From positions 24,376 to 88,375 of the forward strand of contig JAZDPX010000012.1 of assembly GCA_043797125.1 (NCBI GenBank): a stretch of 64,000 nt of DNA, written 5' to 3'. This document shows, piece after piece, positions 1 to 44,710 of this stretch. The translations under genes were made by a program, and so were the position numbers. The DNA is from Candidatus Omnitrophota bacterium (lineage in GTDB: Bacteria > Omnitrophota > Gorgyraeia > JABMRG01 > JAFGKX01). Numbering within the stretch: position 1 is the stretch's first letter; the number at the start of each line of letters is the position of its first letter. A model generated the notes under the pieces. It was not told where the DNA came from. It worked only from the letters and a program-made list of their open reading frames with translations, and did no database searches.

Positions 1-1548
1 GAAATCGTGGGAAAACATTTTAAGGAAATAATACATCCTGATGATATTAATGCCATTGACCGCGAGAGAGTCCTGCCTAAATACGCAGGCAAGGTAACCG
101 GCGATACAAACGCGCCCAAGCTTTTTAACGAAAGAAGGACGAACGGTCGAATGACAAAAGACCTGCAGGTTAAACTTTTGCTAAAAGGCGCTAAAGACTT
201 ATTGCAGGATTACCGGTATGTTGAGATATGTTCCTCGGGAAAATGGCTTAAACTTGCCAAGGAAGGCAATAGAGAGTTTGTAGGTAGTATCGGGATTATC
301 ACGGATATCACAGAGCGCAAAAAGGCCCAGGAGGCGCTTGAGAAAGCAAAAAAAGAGCTGGAGATACAGGCTTGGGGGTTAAAAAAGACAAACGAAGGCG
401 TAAAGCTGCTCTATAAAGAATTGGAAGAAAGGAATAAGCGGCTTCAGAAGCTTGATCAGCTAAAATCTGATTTTATTTCCACGGTTTCGCATGAGTTGCG
501 CACACCTCTTTCCATTACAAAAGAGGGCTTAAACCTTATTTTAGATAAAATCGCAGGCGACATTACACAAAAGCAGCATGAGATACTTACTGTTTCAAGA
601 GACAATATAGACCGCCTGGCGCGGATGATAAACAACCTGCTTGATGTATCAAAAATAGAGGCAGGCAAAGTAGAATTAAAAAAGTCACTTTTTAATATAA
701 ATAACCTGATATCCGAGCTCGCATTCACTTTTGAGCCTAAATTAAAGAGCAAAGGGTTAGAACTTAAATTAAGCCTCACTAAAGACGAAATTAATATTTT
801 TGCCGACGCGGATAAAATTACCCAAACTTTTACCAACCTGATATATAATGCCATAAAGTTTACTGAAAAAGGTTTTATAGAAATTTCAGCAAAAGAAAAA
901 GAGAATGAGGTTGAGTTTTCTGTGTCAGATACCGGTAAAGGCATAGCAAAAGAAGACCTGCCTAAACTATTCAGCAAGTTTGAGCAGTTTGGACGCATGC
1001 ATGGTTCGGGGGATAAAGGCACGGGCCTGGGCCTTTCCATAGCTAAGAGCATAGTAGAGCTGCACAAGGGTATGATTTGGGCTGAAAGCACGCTTGGCGA
1101 AGGAACAAAGTTTATTTTTACTTTACCGAAGTATACGAGCGAAGGCGTATTGAAAGAGCATATTGATAAAGCTATAGCAGATGCGCAAGAAAAGAATTCT
1201 AAGCTGTCTGTTATCGCGGTATCCCTTGCCAGCTCTGATAGATTAAATGAGGCGTTGCCCGATGAGAAAATACAGTCTGTGTTAAAAGATATTGAAAATA
1301 TACTTGATAGCAGTCTGCTTCGTTCCGAGGATATATCAGTTAAGGCTACGGGCGAGATAATAGTTGTTTTAGCTGATTGCGATAAAGAGAGCGCGTTGAA
1401 AGTAAGGTTAAGAATTGAGCAGGCTATACGTAACTACTTGACCAGCAGGGAATTGACTGATAAAATTAAGCTGCTATTTAGCTGTATTACCTATCCCGAT
1501 GAGGCAAAGACTTCTGAGGAGATAGTAAAAAAGACAAAGGGTATATAA
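1..1548 (+). CDS. PAS sensor histidine kinase (5' partial) with a C-terminal degenerate GGDEF-like domain
   Basis: Frame is open to the window edge. HisKA H-box SHELRTPL. HATPase_c G-boxes DTGKGI and GTGLGLSIAKSIVELH. The last ~150 aa align to the GGDEF fold, but the GG(D/E)EF position reads ATGEI. Confidence 0.8.
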   Translation, partial: EIVGKHFKEIIHPDDINAIDRERVLPKYAGKVTGDTNAPKLFNERRTNGRMTKDLQVKLLLKGAKDLLQDYRYVEICSSGKWLKLAKEGNREFVGSIGIITDITERKKAQEALEKAKKELEIQAWGLKKTNEGVKLLYKELEERNKRLQKLDQLKSDFISTVSHELRTPLSITKEGLNLILDKIAGDITQKQHEILTVSRDNIDRLARMINNLLDVSKIEAGKVELKKSLFNINNLISELAFTFEPKLKSKGLELKLSLTKDEINIFADADKITQTFTNLIYNAIKFTEKGFIEISAKEKENEVEFSVSDTGKGIAKEDLPKLFSKFEQFGRMHGSGDKGTGLGLSIAKSIVELHKGMIWAESTLGEGTKFIFTLPKYTSEGVLKEHIDKAIADAQEKNSKLSVIAVSLASSDRLNEALPDEKIQSVLKDIENILDSSLLRSEDISVKATGEIIVVLADCDKESALKVRLRIEQAIRNYLTSRELTDKIKLLFSCITYPDEAKTSEEIVKKTKGI

Positions 1549-1550
1549 AC

Positions 1551-1937
1551 ATGGGAGCAAAAATGGGTGAAAAAAAGATTTTGGTGATAGACGATGAGGC
1601 AGATATCCTCGATGTCGTCAGCGCCTTGTTAAAATTTAACGGCTATGAAGTAGATACCGCAGGCGATGGCCTTGAAGGATTGGAAAAGGCAAGTTTAGGA
1701 AAGCCGGATTTAATTCTTTTGGATATTAAAATGGCCCAGGTTGACGGCTATACTGTTTTACGTAAATTAAAACAAAACCAGCTTACAAAACACATTCCCG
1801 TTATTGTTATGACTGTTTACGATAAAATGAGAGACCTGTTTGAAGCCGAGGGCATAGCTGATTATATTGTTAAGCCCTATGACGACCAGGATCTTTTGCT
1901 AAGGGTGGCGAGGATAATAAAAGAAGGAAAGAGGTGA
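1551..1937 (+). CDS. single-domain response regulator receiver (CheY-like)
   Basis: REC motifs ILVIDDE...LILLDIKM...DGYTVLRKLK...KP; no output domain. Confidence 0.8.
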   Translation: MGAKMGEKKILVIDDEADILDVVSALLKFNGYEVDTAGDGLEGLEKASLGKPDLILLDIKMAQVDGYTVLRKLKQNQLTKHIPVIVMTVYDKMRDLFEAEGIADYIVKPYDDQDLLLRVARIIKEGKR

Positions 1938-1943
1938 TAGGCC

Positions 1944-2312
1944 TTGGACAAAAAAAAGATATTGATAGTTGATGACGAGGTTCAGTTAGTTGAGATGGTT
2001 AAGATGCGGCTTGAGGCCAATAACTACGATGTTATTACCGCGCATGACGGCGATGAAGCCATAGAAAAGGCAAGATTGAGCCCGGATTTGATTCTTTTGG
2101 ATGTTATGATGCCTAAGTCAGATGGTTTTGAGGTGGCTAAAAAGCTAAAGGCCAATTCCAAGACACAACCTATACCCATAATTATGTTTACCGCAAGAAG
2201 CGAATCAGAGGCAACTAAAAAGGCGCTTGACGCTGGGGCTTATGACTATATTGTAAAACCATTTAACCCTGTGGTGTTGTTAAATAAAGTTAAGGACGCG
2301 TTAAAAAAATAG
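1944..2312 (+). CDS. single-domain response regulator receiver (CheY/PilH-like)
   Basis: REC motifs ILIVDDE...DLILLDVMMPKSDG...YIVKPF; no output domain. Confidence 0.8.
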   Translation: MDKKKILIVDDEVQLVEMVKMRLEANNYDVITAHDGDEAIEKARLSPDLILLDVMMPKSDGFEVAKKLKANSKTQPIPIIMFTARSESEATKKALDAGAYDYIVKPFNPVVLLNKVKDALKK

Positions 2313-2330
2313 GAGCTTGAAGCTAACTAT

Positions 2331-4025
2331 ATGGAAAAAGATATATTAAATATTTTGGTTGAGGAAGGGCTGATTACCTCTAAACAGCTCGATGAGATAA
2401 AAGGCGAACAAAAATTAACCAATCTTACGGCGCAGAAAATTTTGCTTAGCAAAGGCTATATAAGCGACGAGCAGCTTGCAAAAGCGCAAGGCAAGGTTAT
2501 GGATGTCGGGTATATAAAGCTCTCAGATATAAAAATTGACGCGCAGGTTATACAAATGGTGCCTATGGATGTGGCGCGCAGATACAACGCAGTTCCGGCA
2601 AAGATGCAGGGCAATGACCTTTACGTAGCTTTTATTAACCCCGCGGATTTACCAGCCAGAAACGAAATAAGACTGCTTACGGGCTGCGTAATAAAGCCGA
2701 TGATAACAACCGAAAAAGAGATAGTGCAGGCCATAAGCAAATATTATAAGGTTGAAGACTCCGGCAAACAGGCGCTTATCGATATGCGCGTTAAGGAGCT
2801 TAAGGACAAAAAGAAGGAAAAGGCCTCTGCCCAAACGCAGGAACAAGTAGACAAACTGGAAGACATGCCTGTTGTGCGCTTAGTAAACGATATTATTGCC
2901 GGAGCTATAAACGCAAAAGCCAGCGACATACATTTAGAGCCGCAGGATCCCGAGATGAGGGTCCGTTACAGGATAGACGGAATTTTACACGATGTAATGA
3001 AGGTGCCAAAACATATCGAGTCAGCCGTAATTTCCCGTATTAAGATTATGTCTAATCTGGATATTACCGAGAGACGACGCCCGCAGGACGGCCACATTAC
3101 AATAAAAAAAGAAGCCAAGGATTATGATTTCAGAATTTCAACGCTTTTGACTATAAACGGAGAAAAGGTAGTTATAAGGATTTTAGACAGGGCCAGCATG
3201 CTGATAAGCTTGGAAAGATTAGGTCTTACGTCATATGATCAGAAAATTTTCAGGTCATTGGTTGATAAGCCTTACGGCATGGTATTGGTTACAGGCCCGA
3301 CAGGAAGCGGCAAGACCACGACGCTATACGCTGTTTTAAGCCAGCTTAACAAAAACGAACGCAATATCATTACCATAGAAAATCCTGTTGAATACAAGCT
3401 AAACGGCATAAACCAGATTCAGGTGGATAGCGGAGTTAATATGACATTCGCAACAGGCTTAAGAACCATCTTAAGGCAGGATCCTGATATTATAATGGTC
3501 GGTGAAATCAGAGACAAGGAGACAGCGGAGATAGCAATTCATGCGGCATTGACAGGCCATTTGGTTTTTAGCACCCTGCATACCAACGATGCGCCCAGCG
3601 CTGTAACGCGTTTGGTAGATATGGGGGTGGAGCCGTTTTTAATCTCATCTACCGTAATAGGCGCGATAGCGCAGAGGCTGTGCAGGGTCATCTGCCCCGA
3701 ATGCAAACAGGAATATTCCCCGTCACAAGACGAACTAAATATTTTAGAACACAAAGCGCAGGATACAAAATTAGTCCATGGCAAAGGATGTGATTTCTGC
3801 TATCACACCGGTTTTAAGGGCCGCAGCGCCATTTTTGAAGTTATGAAGATAAGCGAGGCAATTGCGCAGCTTATATTGGATATGCGCCCGGTGCCGGAAA
3901 TAAAAGCGCAGGCAATGAAAGAGGGCATGAAGACGCTGAGGCAGAACGGCATACAGAAGGTGCTGGATAAAATTTCCACAATAGCAGAAGTAAAAAGGGT
4001 AGTTTATACAGAGGAAAATAAATAG
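2331..4025 (+). CDS. pilB: type IV pilus assembly ATPase PilB/GspE family
   Basis: N-terminal T2SSE_N-like domain. Walker A GPTGSGKTTT, Asp box, His box, tetracysteine motif CPECK...CDFC. Confidence 0.9.
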   Translation: MEKDILNILVEEGLITSKQLDEIKGEQKLTNLTAQKILLSKGYISDEQLAKAQGKVMDVGYIKLSDIKIDAQVIQMVPMDVARRYNAVPAKMQGNDLYVAFINPADLPARNEIRLLTGCVIKPMITTEKEIVQAISKYYKVEDSGKQALIDMRVKELKDKKKEKASAQTQEQVDKLEDMPVVRLVNDIIAGAINAKASDIHLEPQDPEMRVRYRIDGILHDVMKVPKHIESAVISRIKIMSNLDITERRRPQDGHITIKKEAKDYDFRISTLLTINGEKVVIRILDRASMLISLERLGLTSYDQKIFRSLVDKPYGMVLVTGPTGSGKTTTLYAVLSQLNKNERNIITIENPVEYKLNGINQIQVDSGVNMTFATGLRTILRQDPDIIMVGEIRDKETAEIAIHAALTGHLVFSTLHTNDAPSAVTRLVDMGVEPFLISSTVIGAIAQRLCRVICPECKQEYSPSQDELNILEHKAQDTKLVHGKGCDFCYHTGFKGRSAIFEVMKISEAIAQLILDMRPVPEIKAQAMKEGMKTLRQNGIQKVLDKISTIAEVKRVVYTEENK

Positions 4026-10485: not shown

Positions 10486-10695
10486 ATGTTTATTTTTGGT
10501 TTAATAGGCATAGTAGCATTGGCTTTAGGAATACTGCATTTTACCAGCACGGATACAATATGTAAAATAGATGAAATCGGGAAAAAGGTTATCATTACCA
10601 TGGATAAGATGGTAAAAAAATACCCTAAAAGATTAGGCGTGCTTTACATTATTGCCGCTACTTTCCTGATTTATGTTGGCTTCTTTTTGAAATAA
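10486..10695 (+). CDS. small two-TM membrane protein, hypothetical
   Basis: 69-aa ORF with two hydrophobic helices. 3' end overlaps the convergent gene. No recognisable motif. Confidence 0.3.
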   Translation: MFIFGLIGIVALALGILHFTSTDTICKIDEIGKKVIITMDKMVKKYPKRLGVLYIIAATFLIYVGFFLK

Positions 10696-12785
10696 TTTAA
10701 AGCCTTGTATAGATTCAGCCTTGCCTGTACGTGATTCGGGTTAAGGCGCAGCGCCTTTCTCCAAAATTTAATCGCCTTATCTTGATTTCCGATAGCGTTG
10801 TATATTACCCCGATATTGTTATAAGCAAATGCCGACCCCGAATCAGAGCGTAAGATTGCCCTAAACGCTTTCAGAGAATCATTTATTTTTCCTTTTTCGT
10901 AAAATAAAAGCCCAAGCCTGCTAAAGGCCTCGGTATGATTGGGGTTTGCCTTGACAACTTTTAAGAACTCCTCAATTGCCTTATCGCTTTCGCGCTTTTT
11001 TTCGTATGCAAGCCCGAGGTTATAATGGATAAACGGGCTTTTTTGGTCCGCATTTTTTGCCTCTTCTAATACAGATATGGCCTCATCATACAGGCCGATT
11101 ATTCTTAGGAATTCCCCTTTCTTAAAAAGCGTAAACGGAAACAGCCCCTTTACTGCCTTTTGAGCAGGATATTGTTTAATTACTTCGTAGATATTAGGAT
11201 ATTTATTGATAATATCCCTGTTCGCAAAAGAATTTTTTACAAAGACGCAGGATATCTCGTCAAAAAAGACAAGCCTCCAGTCGCTATTGTTATAAATATA
11301 TTCCAGAAGCGCGTCAGAATCAATGTATATGCGGCTTAAAATTATATAATTTATGTCAAAACCTTTCGTCACCTTGTCAAATTCTTTAGGATGCGATGTT
11401 AAGTCCACGTAGCCTTTGTAGAATTTCGGGCCGTATACTTCGGTTCTGCCGTCGATAAACACCTTTCTTTCAGGGGTAAGCCGAAAGATAAGATAACCGC
11501 CTATTTCGTAGGCATTGAACATATTGCCTTTGATGTTATTTGCCAGGATAAAGCGAACAGCGTCCTTTGGATATTTTGCATCCAAATCCCCAAGCCCGAA
11601 ACTTCGCACTGTTTTTTCCCTGAAGCAATATCTTGGAGATGTGGCAATAAAAGTTAAAGAAAGCATGCCGGCGATAAGACATAGAAGCAGTAGTAATTCT
11701 AAAACCATAGGGGACAGTTTCCCGAACAATTTGGAAAGCGTCTCCCGAACAAATCGGAAAGCGTCTCCGGATTGAGCAGATTCAAAGTTAAGCATGGTAA
11801 TAGGAGCGGTGAGTATGGCAAAATCAATGATATTTCTATTGGCCTTAAACGAAAAGGCCAAAAAAATAGCGTAAATGATAAGGTGCGTAGGATTCAAGCG
11901 CTTGTAATTTAAAACAAAGCCGGCTAAAGATAAAAATATCAGAAGTTTATAATAAGGGTAAGGTTGTAATTTTAAGATATTGTAAATATTAAGAGGCGGC
12001 TGCAGCTCCGTGATGTATTTCATTATAACTTCCTGCCAGCCGCTGTTGTTTATGCCTGTTAATGTCAAAAACGGATACAAAGCCCCGGTTAAGCCGTTTG
12101 GATTTATCAGGCCTGCTAATATGGCTGCCGCTGCAACACGCAGCAGCGTATTAAGTTTTTCTCTTTTCATGCGCTGCAATGCCTCGCCGATTAAATAGGA
12201 GAGTATAAGTATTATCCCCATTAAAGAGCCGCCGTGCAGATTTGTCCAAACCATTTGCAAGACAGGCAGTAAAAAAATTAGTTTCGTATTTTTGTATTTA
12301 AAATTATGCAATATTGAAAAATATATAACAAGGAATAAGGAATTGAACATGAAGGGGCGCTCAAGAAATCTATGTTCTGAAGCCAAAACCGCCACGACCG
12401 TTAAAATCACAGAAACCAAATATAAATTCTTGCGAAAACAAACAGCAAAAACAATAAAAAACGCAGCGCCAAAAACAAGCGCCTTCAAAACCACGATGCC
12501 GCCCAAGCCAAAGCCCCTGAAAATTAAGAAAAGCAAGACATCAGCCAACCACTGATGGTTAACCCATCGATGGCCAGGCACTGTATATGAAAATATATCG
12601 ATTTTTGGGATAAAACCATTGGCTAATATATACTCCCCTGTTTTTAAGTGCCACCAGATGTCAAAATCCCTTATATTTTGAATTAACATGGCAGCTACAA
12701 ACGTAAAAAGCCCTAAAAATACAGCGTATTTCGCGGCCTTTAGCAAGACAGGCAGCCAAGGAAAGAAAAAATTTTGCTTTTTCAT
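10671..12785 (-). CDS. polytopic membrane protein (GT-C/PMT-like N-terminal domain) with C-terminal TPR repeats
   Basis: At least 10 predicted TM helices in the N-terminal 450 aa. The C-terminal 170 aa contain about four TPR units (NLGLAYEKK..., AFSRLGLLFYEKG..., AYNNIGVIYNAIG...). Confidence 0.7.
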   Translation of the reverse strand: MKKQNFFFPWLPVLLKAAKYAVFLGLFTFVAAMLIQNIRDFDIWWHLKTGEYILANGFIPKIDIFSYTVPGHRWVNHQWLADVLLFLIFRGFGLGGIVVLKALVFGAAFFIVFAVCFRKNLYLVSVILTVVAVLASEHRFLERPFMFNSLFLVIYFSILHNFKYKNTKLIFLLPVLQMVWTNLHGGSLMGIILILSYLIGEALQRMKREKLNTLLRVAAAAILAGLINPNGLTGALYPFLTLTGINNSGWQEVIMKYITELQPPLNIYNILKLQPYPYYKLLIFLSLAGFVLNYKRLNPTHLIIYAIFLAFSFKANRNIIDFAILTAPITMLNFESAQSGDAFRFVRETLSKLFGKLSPMVLELLLLLCLIAGMLSLTFIATSPRYCFREKTVRSFGLGDLDAKYPKDAVRFILANNIKGNMFNAYEIGGYLIFRLTPERKVFIDGRTEVYGPKFYKGYVDLTSHPKEFDKVTKGFDINYIILSRIYIDSDALLEYIYNNSDWRLVFFDEISCVFVKNSFANRDIINKYPNIYEVIKQYPAQKAVKGLFPFTLFKKGEFLRIIGLYDEAISVLEEAKNADQKSPFIHYNLGLAYEKKRESDKAIEEFLKVVKANPNHTEAFSRLGLLFYEKGKINDSLKAFRAILRSDSGSAFAYNNIGVIYNAIGNQDKAIKFWRKALRLNPNHVQARLNLYKALNYFKKKPT
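11690..11775. repeat. two tandem copies of a short dispersed repeat (TTTCCCGAACAA...GGAAAGCGTCTC) embedded in-frame in the TPR membrane protein gene
   Basis: gacagtttcccgaacaatttggaaagcgtctcccgaacaaatcggaaagcgtctcc. Its reverse complement matches 34967-35002 in the bio esterase-BioC gene at 31/33 nt. Confidence 0.5.
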
Positions 12786-30506: not shown

Positions 30507-30593
30507 GGCCTGTTGCAATTTGCTCCCCCCGATGTCATTCCCGCGAAACTTGTCCCCGTGAAAACGGGGAGCGGGGATCCATAGTTCGGCTTT

Positions 30594-30820
30594 TGCAATG
30601 TTTGGTGCTAAATCCTTTTAGCTTTTGCGTGCCTGCCTTCGCTTGTCGCTCGCAAAAAGGATCGTTTCGCCTTCGGCGAAAGGCGCTTTTTGCTCGCTGT
30701 GGCAAAAATCGCTCACTTCTCGCTTAGGTTTTCGCGATTTTTGACAGTCGCTCCGGCAGGACACGCAAAAGCTTTTTTAATGTACCTCGCATTGCAGAAA
30801 CCTCACTTAGATGAATTAGG
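30594..30820. mobile_element. MITE-like highly structured repeat element, copy 1
   Basis: Terminal inverted repeats GGCTTTTGCAATG...CATTGCAGAAACC. Internal nested palindromes. A second copy sits at 36438-36621 with near-identical termini and both end in ATTAGG. No ORF. Confidence 0.5.
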
Positions 30821-33184: not shown

Positions 33185-34326
33185 ACCAGTTTTTAAAAGA
33201 GGCAGAAGAAAACGGCCTTTTAAGAATCCTGCACCCGGCAGATTACAGAAGAAACGGCGTGATTTGCATTGAAGGCAGAGAATATGCTGATTTTTCATCC
33301 AATGATTATCTTGGCTTATCGCATCATGCTTATATAAAAAGCGCCTCATGCAATATTATAGAAAAACTCGGCGCCTCATCAAGCGCATCCAGATTATTAA
33401 GCGGAAGCTTAACGCTTCACAGCGAACTTGAAGACAGAACCGCCTCTTTTAAAGGCAAGGAAGCAGCTCTTATTTTTAATAGCGGCTATCAGGCAAACAT
33501 AGGGATAATAAGTTCGTTGTGCTCAAGGGGCGATGTTGTCTTCACCGACAAGCTAAGCCACGCGAGCATAATCGATGGGGTATTGTTATCCGGGGCGAAA
33601 CTTTTTAGGTTTCTGCATAATGACGCAGGGAGTCTTGAATCTTTATTAAAAACGCACAGGCAAAAATTTAAAAACGCCCTGATAATAACAGAAACAGTTT
33701 TCAGCATGGATGGGGACATAGCGCCTTTGAAAGACTTAGTAAGCATAAAAGAAGAATACAACTGCCAAATCATGATTGATGAAGCTCATGCAACAGGCGT
33801 ATTCGGCGATAGTGGCTCAGGGATTGCGGAAAAGGAGAATTTAACAGATTCCATAGATTTGATTATGGGGACATTCAGCAAGGCCCTCGGAAGCTTCGGT
33901 GCCTATTTGGCTTGCTCAAAAAATATAAAAGATTATTTAATAAATACATCAAGAAGCTTTATATATTCCACCGCATTGCCACCCTCGGTTATAGCGGCAA
34001 ATTTGGCCAGCCTTGAGTTAATTAAAAAGGAGCCGTTTAGAAGGCGGGAACTTTTGCAGAAAGCGTCATATTTTAGAAATGAATTATCAAGCCTCAGGCT
34101 TACAGTAAAAGGCTCTTCGCAAATAATACCTTTAATTGTTAAGGACAGCCGTAAGGCAGTAAAAATCAGCAGCCTCCTTAAAGAGAAAGGCTTCTGGGCG
34201 CCTGCCATAAGGCCGCCTACGGTCCCTGCCAATGAAGCGCGAATAAGGTTTTCCTTAAGTTATTGCCACACAAAAGATGTATTGGATAGGCTTATCAATG
34301 ATATCTATGAAATCAACGAATTTTAA
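33172..34326 (+). CDS. bioF: 8-amino-7-oxononanoate synthase
   Basis: Class II aminotransferase fold. PLP lysine in TFSKALGSFG. FSSNDYLGLS. Confidence 0.85.
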   Translation: MEQINQFLKEAEENGLLRILHPADYRRNGVICIEGREYADFSSNDYLGLSHHAYIKSASCNIIEKLGASSSASRLLSGSLTLHSELEDRTASFKGKEAALIFNSGYQANIGIISSLCSRGDVVFTDKLSHASIIDGVLLSGAKLFRFLHNDAGSLESLLKTHRQKFKNALIITETVFSMDGDIAPLKDLVSIKEEYNCQIMIDEAHATGVFGDSGSGIAEKENLTDSIDLIMGTFSKALGSFGAYLACSKNIKDYLINTSRSFIYSTALPPSVIAANLASLELIKKEPFRRRELLQKASYFRNELSSLRLTVKGSSQIIPLIVKDSRKAVKISSLLKEKGFWAPAIRPPTVPANEARIRFSLSYCHTKDVLDRLINDIYEINEF

Positions 34327-34354
34327 ATACATAAACAGGAATAAAGAGAGCACA

Positions 34355-35848
34355 ATGGTTTTTGTGCCCGGCTGGGCAACTGATTACAGGATTTTTGATT
34401 CGCTAAAGCAGGATTGCAACTGCCTGATCCCTGAGAGTTTTCACCCGTTCGATTTTAAAGAGCGTCTTTTGAATGCGTTAAAAAAAAATAGCATAGAAAG
34501 GCTCTCGCTTTTTGGATTTTCGCTCGGTGGTTTTGTCGCAGCGGAATTTGCTTTTGAATTTCCAAAGCTGGTAGATGAGCTTGTGTTGGTAGGCATAAGA
34601 AAAAGATACGACCCCTTGGCGATAGAGACGATAAAACAAAAGCTTCTAAAAAACAAAAACGCCTTTTTGTACACATTTTACAGTCAGTGTTTTTATAATA
34701 AAGACGCCTTTTCCTTTTTTAAGAAGAATTTGCTCAAAATTTATTGCGATTGTATGGAGCTGGATTACCTGCTTGAAACTTTGGAGTATCTAAAAAATTC
34801 TAGAATAACATCCCAGATGCTGAAAGCAATAAAGAGCGTAAAAATCATGCACGGAGAATTTGACGCAATAGCCCCGATAGAAGAGGCCAGGGATATAGCA
34901 CGCAGCTTAAACAATGCAGAGTTCGCATGCCTACAAAACGAAGGCCACATCCCCTACAGCTGGAGACGCTTACCAAATTGTTCGGGAAAGTGTCCCAAAA
35001 TTGTTCGGGAAAGTGTTCCCGTCTTGTTCGGGAAACAGTTTCCTGAACAGATCAGAAAGCGTTTCCCGAGCAAGTTGGAAAACGTCTCGATGAACAAAGA
35101 AGCTATAAGAAGGAATTTTTCGAAATACGCAGGATATTATGATCAATACTGCAATATACAGAATGCCTGCGCGCAAGAACTCATAGGAAAATTAAACGGC
35201 GCTCATTTCAATAATATTCTTGATATCGGCTGCGGAACAGGAAACTACACTAAATTTTTAAGGGAAAAATTTCCAAAGGCCGCAATAAAGGCGATAGACA
35301 TCTCGGAAAACATGATAGAAATAGCGAAGCTTAAATTATCGGGCGATAATATAGAATTTATCGTTGCCGATGCGGAGACAATAGACCTTGACGCTGGGTT
35401 TGACCTTTTAAGCTCAAACGCTTCCTTGCAATGGTTTGAAAACCTAGAAAGCGCTCTTATAAAATATAAGGAATTACTGGCAGCAGGAGGCGTCGCGCTG
35501 TTTTCTGTATTCGGGCCCAACACTTTTCATGAGCTGGATGAGTCCCTGAAGCAGGTATTCGGCAAAAGTAAAAGCATAAGTTCCTATAATTTTCTGGAAA
35601 AAAGAAAAATAGAGGCTGTCTTAAGCGGACTTTTTAATGAAATCCAGATAGAGCAAAAGATATACACCGAAAAACACGCCTCTTTGACAGACCTGCTTAA
35701 AAAAATAAAATATACAGGCACAAGAGGCAATGGCGCTCGTACGCTTTGGAGCATTGGCACATTAAGCAGGCTTGAAGACGTATATAAAAAGAAATTCAAC
35801 GATATAACAGCAACATACGAGGTGTTTTTTTGCAAAGCGGTAAAATGA
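34355..35848 (+). CDS. fusion of pimeloyl-ACP methyl ester esterase (BioG/BioH-type alpha/beta hydrolase) and malonyl-ACP O-methyltransferase BioC
   Basis: N-terminal ~215 aa carry the GFSLGG nucleophile elbow and His near the end. C-terminal half carries SAM motif ILDIGCGTGNYT and BioC-like sequence. Start set at ATG 34355 (RBS AAAGAGAG). Confidence 0.75.
   Translation: MVFVPGWATDYRIFDSLKQDCNCLIPESFHPFDFKERLLNALKKNSIERLSLFGFSLGGFVAAEFAFEFPKLVDELVLVGIRKRYDPLAIETIKQKLLKNKNAFLYTFYSQCFYNKDAFSFFKKNLLKIYCDCMELDYLLETLEYLKNSRITSQMLKAIKSVKIMHGEFDAIAPIEEARDIARSLNNAEFACLQNEGHIPYSWRRLPNCSGKCPKIVRESVPVLFGKQFPEQIRKRFPSKLENVSMNKEAIRRNFSKYAGYYDQYCNIQNACAQELIGKLNGAHFNNILDIGCGTGNYTKFLREKFPKAAIKAIDISENMIEIAKLKLSGDNIEFIVADAETIDLDAGFDLLSSNASLQWFENLESALIKYKELLAAGGVALFSVFGPNTFHELDESLKQVFGKSKSISSYNFLEKRKIEAVLSGLFNEIQIEQKIYTEKHASLTDLLKKIKYTGTRGNGARTLWSIGTLSRLEDVYKKKFNDITATYEVFFCKAVK
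34967..35090. repeat. intragenic array of a ~23-nt repeat (TTGTTCGGGAAAGTGTCCC; three direct copies plus one inverted) in the esterase-BioC linker
   Basis: ccaaattgttcgggaaagtgtccc / aaaattgttcgggaaagtgttccc / gtcttgttcgggaaacagtttcc / tttcccgagcaagttggaaaacgtctc. Each copy is read in a different codon phase. Confidence 0.6.
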
Positions 35849-36465
35849 AAGCTATTTTTGTTACAGGCACCGGAACAGGCGTAGGAAAGACCACTGTCTG
35901 CAGACTGCTGGAAAGATTCCTTAAGACAAATGGATACAGGACGATAACGCAGAAGTGGATCTGCACAGGCAGTAAAACCCTTCCCATAAATAAAGATAAG
36001 CAGCCTTACACATTTAAATTTCCTGCCTCGCCTCATCTTGCGGCGCGGCTCGAACGAAAATGTGTAAGTAAAAAAATAATAAAACAAAGTTTCAGGAATT
36101 TGCAGAGGCAGTTTGATTTTGTAATAGTAGAAGGCATAGGTGGGGCGCTTGTGCCTTTTAATAATAAGCAACTGGTGATAGATATTGCCAAAGAACTGAA
36201 GCTGCCAGTTTTGGTAGTAATAGATAATAAACTCGGCGCCATTAACCATGCCCTATTAACTATCGAGGCCTTGCGGCGAAGAAAGATGAACATAATAGGC
36301 CTCATCTTCAATAACCGCCGCAAGAGTCAGAACAAAATAATCTTGAATGATAATGTTGATATAATAAAAAGGCTGACAGGGAAGCGGGTGCTGGGAGTAC
36401 TGCCATTCATTCAACGGCGGGCCCTATCTCACCGTTGGTTCGGTTTTTGCAATGCTTGGTGCTGA
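35830..36465 (+). CDS. bioD: dethiobiotin synthetase
   Basis: P-loop FVTGTGTGVGKTTV. Length about 210 aa. The last ~10 codons and the stop lie inside the MITE-like element. Confidence 0.85.
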   Translation: MQSGKMKAIFVTGTGTGVGKTTVCRLLERFLKTNGYRTITQKWICTGSKTLPINKDKQPYTFKFPASPHLAARLERKCVSKKIIKQSFRNLQRQFDFVIVEGIGGALVPFNNKQLVIDIAKELKLPVLVVIDNKLGAINHALLTIEALRRRKMNIIGLIFNNRRKSQNKIILNDNVDIIKRLTGKRVLGVLPFIQRRALSHRWFGFCNAWC

Positions 36466-36621
36466 AATTTTTCGCCGTCCTTTTGGACTTACGGCTTGGT
36501 CGCTTACCCTATAATAAAGAATCTTAGCCGCTTCCGCGCCGTAAGTCCTAAAAGGACATTTGGCGAAAAATTTCTAATGCACCTTCGCATTGCAAAAACC
36601 TCACCAATGGTAAATATTAGG
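36438..36621. mobile_element. MITE-like structured repeat element, copy 2 (overlaps bioD 3' end)
   Basis: Termini GGTTTTTGCAATG...CATTGCAAAAACC. Internal 28-bp stem TTTTTCGCCGTCCTTTTGGACTTACGGC/GCCGTAAGTCCTAAAAGGACATTTGGCGAAAAA. Confidence 0.5.
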
Positions 36622-36945
36622 CCGAGGGGTGTTACTTTAGAATTCGCAACTGATTAAAGGCTTAAGGCGTTGCCGAAAAAACAATAGCGGAGGATTTGGT
36701 ATACTTGCTTAGGAGTAGGCAAAACTTAGGAGTGCCTGCCTACCGTCAGGCAGGCAGGCTGGGGACACCGAAACTGAACCCTTGTATAGTAGGGCCGGCT
36801 TAAGCCTGCCCTACTATCAGTAGGTGAATTTCGGAGGGGCCCCAGCCGAACGACTATAGTTTTGCCCAAATCCGAAGCGTGTTTTTGAGGCAATGCCTTA
36901 AGCCTATTAATGTAGCTCAAATTGCAAAAGCCTCAACTTAGGTGA
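36590..36945. repeat. left arm of long inverted repeat flanking bioA
   Basis: Reverse complement matches 38297-38607 at roughly 85-90% identity by eye, e.g. cctcaaaaacacgcttcggatttgggcaaaactatagtcgttcgg and ctgcctgcctgacggtaggcaggcact. Confidence 0.7.
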
Positions 36946-36949
36946 TAAT

Positions 36950-38296
36950 ATGAATACGTGGATAGAGAAGGATCTCAAGTACGTTTGGCATCCGTATACC
37001 CAAATGAAGGATTGCAAGAAACTCCCGCCTATTCTGATCGAGCGGGCAAAGGGTATTAAGCTCTACGATAACAAAGGTAATTTTTACTACGATACCATCT
37101 CAAGCTGGTGGTGCAATGTCCACGGGCATAACCATCCCAAAGTAAAAGCGGCGATTAAAAGGCAGCTGGATTTATTTGAGCACGTGATGTTTGCCGGCTT
37201 TACGCATAAGCCCGCCATTATGCTGGCAGAAGAACTTATCCGCATTTCTCCCGAATCCCTGACAAAGGTGTTTTTTTCAGATAACGGCTCAACAGCTGTT
37301 GAGACAGCGCTTAAAATGTCTTTTCAATATTGGCATAACACAGGCAAAAGCAAAAAGACAAAATTTCTTTCCTTAGATTACGGGTATCACGGCGACACAA
37401 TAGCGACGATGAGCGTAAGCAGCGTTGATTTGTTCAATATAAAATATAAAGCGCTTATGTTTAACTCGTACAAGGCGAGTTCGCCTTACTGCTATCGCTG
37501 CCCCGTAGGAAAAAATCGCAATAATTGCAGTATAGAGTGCATAGGTTCGCTGGAAACCGCGCTTAAAAATCATAACAGCGAAATAGCCGCTGTTATATTA
37601 GAGCCACTGGTTATGGCTGCAGGCGGAATGATTATATATCCTAAAGAATATCTGGAAAAGGCAGGCGCACTTGCTGAAAAATACAATGTCCACCTGATAT
37701 TAGACGAAGTTGCAACAGGCTTTGGCAGGACAGGAAAGATGTTTGCCTGCGATTATACGGATATACAACCTGACTTTATGTGCCTGTCTAAAGGCATAAC
37801 AGCGGGTTTTCTTGCGATGGGCGCAACGTTGACTACGGATAAGATTTACAATGCCTTTTATGCGGATTATCAGAAGAAAAAGACATTTTATCACGGCCAT
37901 ACCTATACCGCTAACCCTTTATGCTGCGCAGCAGCATTAGCGAGCCTTGGTGTGTTCCGCAAAGAGTGCACTTTAGACAAAATAGACAAACTTATTCCAG
38001 TTTTTCATAAAAAGCTGGAAGGTTTTAAGAATCTTCCAGCTGTCGGAGACATCCGCTACATAGGCATGATAGGCGCTCTGGAATTAGTTAAGGATAAAAA
38101 TACCAAAGAGGCATTTGGCTTTAAAGAAAGAATAGGCCAAAAGATTTATGCCGAAGGCTTAAAAAGTGGCATTTTGTTAAGGCCGCTTGGAAATATAATT
38201 TATTTCTTCTTGCCTTTATGTATTGCAGAGCGCGAGATTAAACTCATTTTAGAAAAGTCCTATAATATACTTTCCAGAATCAGCAAATCTATTTAA
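36950..38296 (+). CDS. bioA: adenosylmethionine-8-amino-7-oxononanoate aminotransferase
   Basis: Class III aminotransferase. N-terminal YVWHPYTQM. PLP-lysine region typical of BioA. Confidence 0.9.
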   Translation: MNTWIEKDLKYVWHPYTQMKDCKKLPPILIERAKGIKLYDNKGNFYYDTISSWWCNVHGHNHPKVKAAIKRQLDLFEHVMFAGFTHKPAIMLAEELIRISPESLTKVFFSDNGSTAVETALKMSFQYWHNTGKSKKTKFLSLDYGYHGDTIATMSVSSVDLFNIKYKALMFNSYKASSPYCYRCPVGKNRNNCSIECIGSLETALKNHNSEIAAVILEPLVMAAGGMIIYPKEYLEKAGALAEKYNVHLILDEVATGFGRTGKMFACDYTDIQPDFMCLSKGITAGFLAMGATLTTDKIYNAFYADYQKKKTFYHGHTYTANPLCCAAALASLGVFRKECTLDKIDKLIPVFHKKLEGFKNLPAVGDIRYIGMIGALELVKDKNTKEAFGFKERIGQKIYAEGLKSGILLRPLGNIIYFFLPLCIAEREIKLILEKSYNILSRISKSI

Positions 38297-38607
38297 GGCT
38301 TAAGGCATAGCCTCAAAAACACGCTTCAGATTTGGGCAAAACTATAGTCGTTCGGCCGGGGCCCCTCCGAATTCACCTACAGATGGTAGCGCAGGCTTAA
38401 GCCTGCGCTACCATCCAAGGGTTCATTCGGTGTCCCCGGCCTGCCTGCCTGACGGTAGGCAGGCACTGCTATGTTTTGCCTACAACCAAAACAAGCGAGC
38501 CAAATCTTCCGCTATTGTTTTTTCGGCAATGTCTTAAGCCTTCAAAGCGGAGACATTGTCAATAAGTTAGGCTTTTGCAATGTGAGGCGCATATGTTTAA
38601 GGCCTGT
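38297..38607. repeat. right arm of long inverted repeat flanking bioA
   Basis: Inverted copy of 36590-36945. Contains hairpin GGTAGCGCA-GGCTTAAGCC-TGCGCTACC. Confidence 0.7.
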
Positions 38608-38751
38608 GGTAATTCGAGCAGGGCTTGCGAGGCCGAGCGGGCATGGTTCGCCCTTGTTTCCATACAGGCGAGAGCGAAGGCCGAGGTCAGAGCACAAAAA
38701 TCCACGCTGGGGATTTTTGTGCGTCCCTGCGAGAATTGCCACAGGCCTTAA
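38607..38751. repeat. 145-bp palindromic structured element
   Basis: Ends TTAAGGCCTGTGGTAATTCGAGCAGGGC and GTCCCTGCGAGAATTGCCACAGGCCTTAA pair over about 28 bp. Internal perfect hairpin GCACAAAAATCC-acgctgg-GGATTTTTGTGC. Confidence 0.5.
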
Positions 38752-38774
38752 GCAAGTCTACTCAAATATTAAAC

Positions 38775-44678: not shown

Positions 44679-44710
44679 GACGTAGCGGAGGCTTAAGCCT
44701 CCGCTACGTC
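44679..44710. repeat. perfect hairpin GACGTAGCGGA-GGCTTAAGCC-TCCGCTACGTC (GGCTTAAGCC REP-like family)
   Basis: Same GGCTTAAGCC core and GTAGSGC arms as hairpins at about 36788-36816 and 38378-38406. Confidence 0.6.

Follow-up and report, generated by a model that had tools for sequence, protein, structure and literature searches.

A probable REP/REPIN-type repeat located in frame within two genes of an Omnitrophota bacterium

A 64,000-nt stretch of DNA from a Candidatus Omnitrophota bacterium (assembly GCA_043797125.1, contig JAZDPX010000012.1, positions 24,376 to 88,375 of the forward strand; hereafter, the window) contains a short array of ~23-nt repeats inside a gene that encodes a fused BioH-BioC protein of biotin synthesis. 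We conclude that this array is very probably a non-autonomous, hairpin-forming repeat of the repetitive extragenic palindromic (REP)/REPIN (REP doublet forming hairpin) type, a group of repeats linked to REP-associated tyrosine transposases (RAYTs). The assignment to the REP/REPIN family follows from the relatives of the repeat, which flank RAYT genes in other genomes. Since the copies in the window are read in frame in genuine open reading frames (ORFs), while the same DNA is noncoding in other genomes, the repeat is best described as a nucleic acid repeat that colonized coding sequence. The array in the BioH-BioC gene is referred to below as element B, and a second copy, located in the gene of a membrane protein, as element A.

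Anatomy of the repeat in the window

Element B is an imperfect palindrome of 126 nt, or 42 codons, assembled from 23-nt units in the following order: a terminal half-unit, three direct units, two inverted units, and a second terminal half-unit (Table 1). A preliminary description, made from the sequence alone, had counted a single inverted copy; there are two, in addition to the terminal half-units that begin with GAGACG and end with CGTCTC. The 19-mer TTGTTCGGGAAAGTGTCCC is found exactly at 34978 (+) and with one mismatch each at 35001 (+) and 11711–11729 (−), where 0.00 occurrences are expected by chance. With up to one mismatch allowed, the 12-mer TTGTTCGGGAAA occurs at seven sites in the window (0.55 expected), including 35024 (+) and, inverted, 35062–35073. 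Tandem Repeats Finder detected a period of 23 at 34975–35035 (2.7 copies) and at 11720–11768 (2.1 copies). These results demonstrate that the dispersed repeat array reported inside a coding region is real. The direct units begin at offsets 701, 724, and 747 of the ORF, i.e., in phases 2, 1, and 0, which bears out their reported translation as NCSGKCP, KIVRESVP, and VLFGKQFP. Since 23 leaves a remainder of 2 when divided by 3, the reading of consecutive units in three phases is inevitable.

In each unit, the conserved motif (T/A)TCGGGA is accompanied by a spacer and by a small dyad core, GGGAA-N3-5-TTCCC; the unit at the outer end is marked by GGAGACG. The dyad cores are short (4 to 6 bp, e.g., GGGAA-AGTG-TTCCC), and the conserved motif, which is single-stranded, is preceded by TTG or CAA. 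A hidden Markov model (HMM) built from 17 arms matched element B on both strands, at 34961–35020 (+, E = 4e-19) and at 35089–35031 (−, E = 2e-12). Element B folds into one long imperfect hairpin with an energy of −35.7 kcal/mol as DNA (z = −7.5). Folding of the array as RNA, proposed earlier as a check, gave −62.8 kcal/mol (z = −7.5), and none of 200 shuffled controls was as stable as element B in either form.

Two other hairpin- or repeat-containing features were considered and rejected: the units abut without spacers, which rules out a CRISPR array, and no T-run follows the hairpin, which rules out an intrinsic terminator. At the gathering level, Rfam models recognized only three tRNAs in the window; at the E-value level, the region 34850–35200 yielded only chance matches to miRNA and rox1 families, far under threshold. 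Thus, the repeat matches no known RNA family.

Element A is a solo arm that encodes residues 339–359 (SGDAFRFVRETLSKLFGKLSP) of a 704-aa protein. It has no inverted partner and, taken alone, no significant fold (z = −0.4). The match between the two loci noted in the preliminary description holds, with 35 nt at 94% complementarity between 11711–11745 and 34962–34996; the extent of the second locus does not, as the element covers ~62 nt and three units rather than 35 nt. The peptide VRE(T/S)..LFGK..P is encoded at both loci in identical phases, as it might be if the similarity stemmed from an ancestral peptide repeat or from chance resemblance of two proteins. The probability of this explanation is vanishingly small: the period of 23 nt is not divisible by 3, the ORF itself also contains inverted copies, the same DNA is noncoding in many genomes and absent from orthologues of the host genes, and the chance expectation is 0.00.

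Table 1. Repeat elements, their constituent units, and the genes that contain them (positions in the window)
Feature	Position	Strand	Basis and remarks
Element B, REPIN-like composite palindrome	34963–35088	+	Outer ends GAGACG / CGTCTC; arm HMM, folding
Left terminal half-unit GAGACGCTTACCAAA	34963–34977	+	Aligns with the GGAGACG(C/T)TT(A/T)CC outer-end unit of loci L008, L011, and L014 and of RAYT-flanking arms
Direct unit 1 TTGTTCGGGAAAGTGTCCCAAAA	34978–35000	+	Phase 2, NCSGKCP; 19-mer match, Tandem Repeats Finder
Direct unit 2 TTGTTCGGGAAAGTGTTCCCGTC	35001–35023	+	Phase 1, (K)IVRESVP; core GGGAA-AGTG-TTCCC, a 5-bp dyad
Palindromic center TTGTTCGGGAAAC-A-GTTTCCTGAACAG	35024–35050	.	Direct unit 3 (phase 0, VLFGKQFP) meeting the first inverted unit
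Inverted unit GTTTCCTGAACAGATCAGAAAGC	35038–35060	−	78% identity to the locus A unit (repeat finding)
Inverted unit GTTTCCCGAGCAAGTTGGAAAAC (35061–35083) plus terminal CGTCTC	35061–35088	−	Repeat finding, 87%
Element A, solo arm: terminal unit plus two 23-nt units	11709–11770	−	Arm HMM, E = 1e-16; tandem period 23
Host gene of B: BioH-like alpha/beta hydrolase fused to BioC methyltransferase	34307–35848	+	Pfam Abhydrolase_1 and Methyltransf_25
Host gene of A: 704-aa protein with a polytopic membrane domain and, C-terminal to it, a TPR domain	10671–12785	−	Pfam/ORF; element in a loop

Relatives of the repeat and their association with RAYT genes

A search of one genome per species with the pattern TTGTTCGGGA-N13-TTGTTCGGGA returned 19 loci, most of them in metagenome-assembled genomes (MAGs) of Omnitrophota and in MAGs labeled Planctomycetia; a metagenome scan added 46 more (loci outside the window are designated by L numbers). 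The arm HMM recovered ~60 further elements, located in Omnitrophota MAGs and in Planctomycetia-labeled or high-GC metagenome contigs. Several family loci per genome are present in CG1_02_44_16 and binchicken_co34_514, and ~20 SDBU01 contigs carry the repeat. Matches of the Planctomycetes-Verrucomicrobia-Chlamydiae (PVC) type have a common layout, in which an outer GGAGACG(T/C)TT(T/A)CC unit is joined to two to four units of 23 nt, often around a variable center, with the units inverted on the other side. The window arm is ~85% identical to that of locus L007 (counted by hand), and relatives form strong hairpins (z = −11.4 at L010 and −9.2 at L009). The possibility, raised earlier, that the match is limited to two loci and ancestral in both proteins does not agree with these data: dozens of loci exist elsewhere, and there are orthologous genes without the repeat.

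A RAYT gene is located between inverted family arms, or directly beside one, at six loci (L007/L062, L069, L070, L071, and L072/L073, with the adjoining case at L033). At L007/L062, a 159-aa ORF is located between two inverted arms; it matches Pfam Y1_Tnp (2.8e-14) and NCBIfam REP_Tyr_transpos, the latter with 80.4 bits against a cutoff of 80. L069 to L071, which represent three further assemblies, and L072/L073, which contains a second RAYT gene (70% identical) of the L007 assembly, were retrieved by identity of the RAYT protein and not by the repeat. At each of these four loci, a plus-strand arm precedes the RAYT gene and a minus-strand arm follows it. At L033, the RAYT gene starts ~30 nt after an arm. 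Another candidate, L003/L030, was rejected as a RAYT-flanking locus, since its RAYT gene (45% identical) is 4.9 kb away from the array and has no recognizable flanking arms.

The RAYTs belong to a clade of 2252 homologues (E ≤ 1e-20), the named members of which are almost all from Omnitrophota. Among NCBIfam models, these proteins match REP_Tyr_transpos best and hardly any other, at 75 to 81 bits compared to 21 bits for IS200. The sole sequence match in the Protein Data Bank (PDB) is 4ER8, the complex of E. coli TnpA_REP with REP DNA, and the HUH and Tyr motifs are aligned. At positions 1904–1963 of L007, ~30 nt of RAYT-proximal internal sequence is retained beside an arm, as expected of a deletion derivative. 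Given the inverted arms around RAYT genes in related genomes, element B can be read as a transposase-less, REPIN-like doublet: it consists of two arms placed head to head, in the layout of a RAYT locus from which the RAYT gene is missing. Element A is a single arm.

The small size of element B (126 nt) and its inverted arms would also suit a classical miniature inverted-repeat transposable element (MITE), derived from an insertion sequence (IS) with a DDE transposase and moved by cut-and-paste with target-site duplication. This is highly improbable. No direct repeat is present at the flanks of element B (CCTACAGCTG on the left, GATGAACAAA on the right) or at those of element A, the arms are multiunit hairpin arrays instead of simple terminal inverted repeats, and no gene other than that of a Y1/HUH RAYT was found between such arms.

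Family copies outside the window are almost all intergenic, and many of them are located immediately upstream of gene starts. Long open frames do extend over some elements (in high-GC contigs and L035), but they were identified either as antisense or low-complexity junk or as cases where the element lies just upstream of a start codon, and none was accepted as intragenic. In L035, the region 1–3300 is repetitive: a conserved segment that codes for an N terminus (...AADKGSDPVAHWRFDEGG...) recurs several times, preceded by family arms, and the two together create a spurious open frame of 1073 aa.

The regular 23-bp period and the dyad-symmetric cores, together with the many copies directly upstream of gene starts, could point to an iteron-like array that a DNA-binding protein of the host or of a plasmid would occupy in double-stranded form, for regulation or as a structural element, with only an incidental position in coding sequence. 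Plain 23-nt tandems with TTGTTCGGGA in other phyla add to this impression. We consider such an array very unlikely, because the copies are dispersed in both orientations, form head-to-head pairs, and bracket RAYT genes, because a position within coding sequence is improbable for a regulatory site, and because the matches in other phyla have only the 10-mer imposed by the search pattern in common.

These plain tandems with a 23-nt period were encountered at L013, L026, L018/L020, L012, L017, L028/L037, and L056/L068, in Bacteroidales, Kiritimatiellae, Acidobacteriota, Burkholderiales, and unassigned contigs, several of them upstream of genes. As they share only TTGTTCGGGA with the family, they may be chance matches or unrelated binding-site arrays.

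Within the family proper, a nearly identical 23-nt unit (GGAAACAGTTTCCAAG TTGTTCGG...) is present in genomes ranging from 36% to 65% GC, including Planctomycetia-labeled MAGs. For example, L023 to L065 (SDBU01 contigs, GC ~0.62) have nearly the same unit as L006 to L010 and L062 (GC ~0.37). The 10-mer TTGTTCGGGA was imposed by the search pattern; the remainder of the unit is conserved as well.

A further property of the arms is a perfect or near-perfect tandem duplication of 7 to 13 nt across the junction of the flank and the first unit, e.g., TCAAACCCG|TCAAACCCG|AAACTG. Such duplications were observed at 13 of 61 nonredundant arm boundaries, compared to 0.9% for positions chosen at random in these loci. 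They are found at the 5′ arm boundary in L002, L006, L019, L025, L029, L034, L035, L044, L051, L052, L061, and L072, and were seen at neither copy in the window. They may mark a site of nicking or slippage.

Host genes and tolerance of the repeat-encoded peptides

The host gene of element B is part of an operon with the order bioF-bioHC-bioD-bioA. The fusion protein has 513 aa in the NCBI annotation, within an ORF open from 34277, and is 100% identical to an annotated protein of a Candidatus Omnitrophota MAG. Element B corresponds to residues 219–261, in the linker between the two domains. The host protein of element A aligns collinearly with 12 homologues through the repeat region. Neither element introduces a stop codon, and each keeps to the reading frame of a genuine ORF. 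Collinearity of the two host ORFs with homologues on either side of the repeat rules out an assembly artifact.

In 27 fused BioH-BioC homologues, the segment GHxPF..NFS(K/R) is 15 to 23 aa long (mode, 18), compared to 52 aa in the window protein. The linker DNA of the P0003 orthologue is unrelated to the repeat unit, and the arm HMM found nothing in the orthologous bio operons of L001 and L074. This comparison, within the limits set by the distance of the homologues, supports insertion of element B into the linker, where ~10 aa of ancestral sequence is apparently missing. For the host gene of element A, the arm HMM found no repeat DNA in the orthologues at L021 and L022.

One orthologue, P0002 (49% identical), has a long linker segment, too, of 55 aa. 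At the corresponding position, L001 10672–10746 contains an in-frame, nearly perfect 75-nt hairpin with 35-nt arms (91% complementarity, −42 kcal/mol, z = −12.6), followed by GC-rich DNA that encodes 19 more extra residues. We read it, from the sequence, as a probable independent insertion into the same permissive linker. The hairpin and some family arms have a ...AACCTGTCCCC core in common; kinship to the family is only suggested (~66% by eye), and the HMM gave no match.

To assess how element B is accommodated, AlphaFold2 was run on an alignment of 28 fused BioH-BioC proteins. Both domains were modeled confidently (mean predicted local distance difference test score, pLDDT, 86.7), and the only long stretch of low confidence (pLDDT <50), residues 220–260, coincides with the repeat-encoded residues 219–261. 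The peptide encoded by element B is thus predicted to be disordered. In low-GC loci, a family arm leaves 4.4 of 6 frames open, compared to 2.6 of 6 for length-matched random segments, and consensus units set in tandem leave all six open. A crude ORF count puts the coding share of the window at ~93%, so that most sites where a copy could land are genic, and its survival requires a preserved frame and a permissive site.

Beyond element B, the bio operon stretch is unusually rich in small palindromic repeats. Two inverted copies of another element, at 36654–36905 and 38296–38545, are 89% identical over 253 nt, have their own 26-nt terminal inverted repeats, and bracket bioA (36950–38296) exactly; in the orthologous operons of L001 and L074, bioD and bioA overlap and have no spacer between them. 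The internal palindrome of the 253-nt element, GTAGGGCCGGCTTAAGCCTGCCCTAC, is of the GTAG...CTAC type. The 26-nt form of this palindrome, GTAGCGGAGGCTTAAGCCTCCGCTAC, is located at 36789–36814 and 38386–38411, with a third copy at 44682–44707, and could represent a second, classical GTAG-type REP family in this genome. A self-complementary element of ~180 nt (36431–36611) covers the last codons and the stop codon of bioD; related termini are found at 30584–30612 and 30774–30806, in the intergenic gap at 30.5–31.1 kb. Another inverted-repeat element, of ~160 nt, is located downstream of bioA (38594–38754).

Origin of the copies and comparison with known systems

RAYTs, as HUH/Y1 enzymes, belong to the IS200/IS605 superfamily. 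What is established for E. coli TnpA_REP and for IS200/IS605 suggests how the copies arose: a RAYT gene located elsewhere in the genome, now or formerly, would have supplied an enzyme that recognized the folded single-stranded units in trans, cut the DNA next to them, and placed copies at new sites. Insertions into genes would normally be purged. Those in the window may have survived because the arms are unusually stop-poor, because the net change in length preserved the frame, and because a domain linker and a variable loop would tolerate disordered residues. The resulting peptides would be translated and neutral, with no benefit to the host protein needed.

Several observations weigh against identification of the array as a REP/REPIN-type repeat. 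The scores of the RAYTs straddle the equivalog cutoff of NCBI (75 to 81 versus 80 bits), and two of five proteins pass it. There are only two copies of the repeat within 64 kb: the arm HMM and a motif scan found no further units in the window beyond elements A and B, and tblastn found no RAYT gene there. The GTAG tag is present in none of the units, which is a departure from the classical GTAG superfamily, although not from REP/RAYT architecture. Close relatives with an empty site were not found in protein collections, where the best homologues are 49 to 55% identical, and we therefore infer insertion from distant orthologues. The orthologue alignment suggested earlier as a way to expose an indel succeeded in this respect for element B only. 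At locus A, the orthologous loops are just 2 to 9 aa shorter; a variable loop has been replaced, with no clean indel. With loops of nearly equal length, no simple insertion is demonstrated there, and earlier loop sequence must have given way to the 21 residues encoded by the repeat. Mobility of the family is likewise something we infer, by analogy with known RAYT systems. Last, both copies in the window are intragenic, while none of the ~60 elsewhere is convincingly so. In the 64 kb considered here, this difference may reflect chance, ascertainment, or a property of the lineage.

The preliminary description had likened the array to Rickettsia palindromic elements (RPEs). The repeat does colonize coding sequence as RPEs do; its class, on the other hand, is REP/REPIN, with relatives that flank RAYT genes. 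An RPE-type element proper would belong to a separate selfish palindromic class, with in-frame insertion into genes as its niche and no dedicated transposase. Both window copies lie in frame within genes, the arms are stop-poor, a second palindromic insert is present in the same linker of the P0002 orthologue, and the outer ends carry CGTC, the tag given for R. conorii RPE-4 and RPE-6 by Di Nocera et al. (PMC3733652). Membership in such a class is nevertheless quite improbable, since the family is essentially extragenic in other genomes, the host is an Omnitrophota bacterium and not Rickettsia, and RAYT genes are flanked or adjoined at six loci, unlike in the CGTC repeats and RPEs of Table 1 of that paper. 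The claim that in-frame colonization is rarely described outside RPEs was overstated, as the same paper lists intragenic GTAG and CGTC REPs in several species.

A variant of the REP/REPIN interpretation, which we regard as rather unlikely, is that in this Omnitrophota lineage the RAYT-linked family behaves in an RPE-like manner, settling recurrently in linkers and loops and supplying new disordered segments. The intragenic position of both window copies and the independent palindromic insert in the P0002 linker hint at such behavior. The multiunit 23-nt arms and the junction duplications might also reflect a nonclassical mode of RAYT copying.

If assigned correctly to the REP/REPIN type, an enigmatic-looking repeat gains a concrete identity and a likely mobilizing enzyme, and REP/RAYT systems are extended to Omnitrophota, for which no description of REP or RAYT elements was found in the searchable literature. 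The window would then offer two natural examples in which a REP doublet or arm is translated into a disordered linker or loop and the host protein is not destroyed. Repeat-encoded linkers of this sort should not be annotated as conserved protein motifs. With a 23-nt unit conserved from 36% to 65% GC, RAYT-flanked copies, and junction duplications, the family could be a usable system for studying how RAYTs copy REPs.

RPEs (RPE-1 and others; Ogata et al. 2000, as described in PMC10969869) are palindromes of ~100 to 150 bp that are inserted in frame in unrelated genes, where they add a fold-compatible peptide. According to that text, they are Rickettsia-specific, mainly intragenic, and without a known transposase, whereas the Omnitrophota family is mainly intergenic elsewhere and RAYT-associated. 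The resemblance of the window repeat to RPEs is functional only and consists in in-frame insertion at permissive sites of unrelated genes. A 2024 review summarizes in-frame insertions of MITEs and RPEs.

Closer precedents are the REPs cataloged by Di Nocera, De Gregorio, and Rocco in 2013 (PMC3733652), who report in-frame intragenic REPs with the highest counts in Opitutus terrae, a member of PVC, and in R. conorii (RPE-4 and RPE-6). In-frame units, dimers, and clusters encode 20 to 82 aa, with 43 to 82 aa for clusters. These REPs are read in frame inside genes, as here; those of Thauera form short-stem tandem clusters, and CGTC is found at the outer ends in our case. The CGTC repeats of that work have an unpaired CGTC tag, an 8- to 9-bp stem, a 4- to 5-nt loop, a CCA tail, and no transposase. 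In the window, CGTC is confined to the outermost unit (GAGACG/CGTCTC), where it is paired within the doublet, and the stems are shorter than 8 to 9 bp. The two also differ in sequence family and phylum, in the shorter cores of the Omnitrophota units, and in the RAYT genes that the latter flank. Since intragenic in-frame REPs have already been cataloged, the kind of element is known and its sequence family is new.

With the IS200/IS605 family, the repeat shares the prospect of a Y1/HUH transposase that recognizes hairpins located subterminally in single-stranded DNA and does not generate a target-site duplication. The gene between the family arms, however, scores as a RAYT and not as IS200, and the flanking repeats are present in multiple copies without the gene. 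The closest likeness is to REPs, bacterial interspersed mosaic elements (BIMEs), and REPINs with their RAYTs, as known from E. coli TnpA_REP (PDB 4ER8) and from the REPINs of P. fluorescens (Bertels and Rainey 2011, PMC3116915). In both cases, short hairpin repeats are dispersed, mostly extragenic, and often arranged in head-to-head pairs; the same repeats are found in inverted orientation around a single RAYT gene, and the alignment of the RAYT here with 4ER8 includes the HUH and Tyr motifs. The Omnitrophota family differs in that its arms are tandems of two to four 23-nt units with 4- to 6-bp cores instead of one 20- to 40-nt palindrome, in that GTAG is missing, in its host phylum, and in the intragenic position of the copies in the window.

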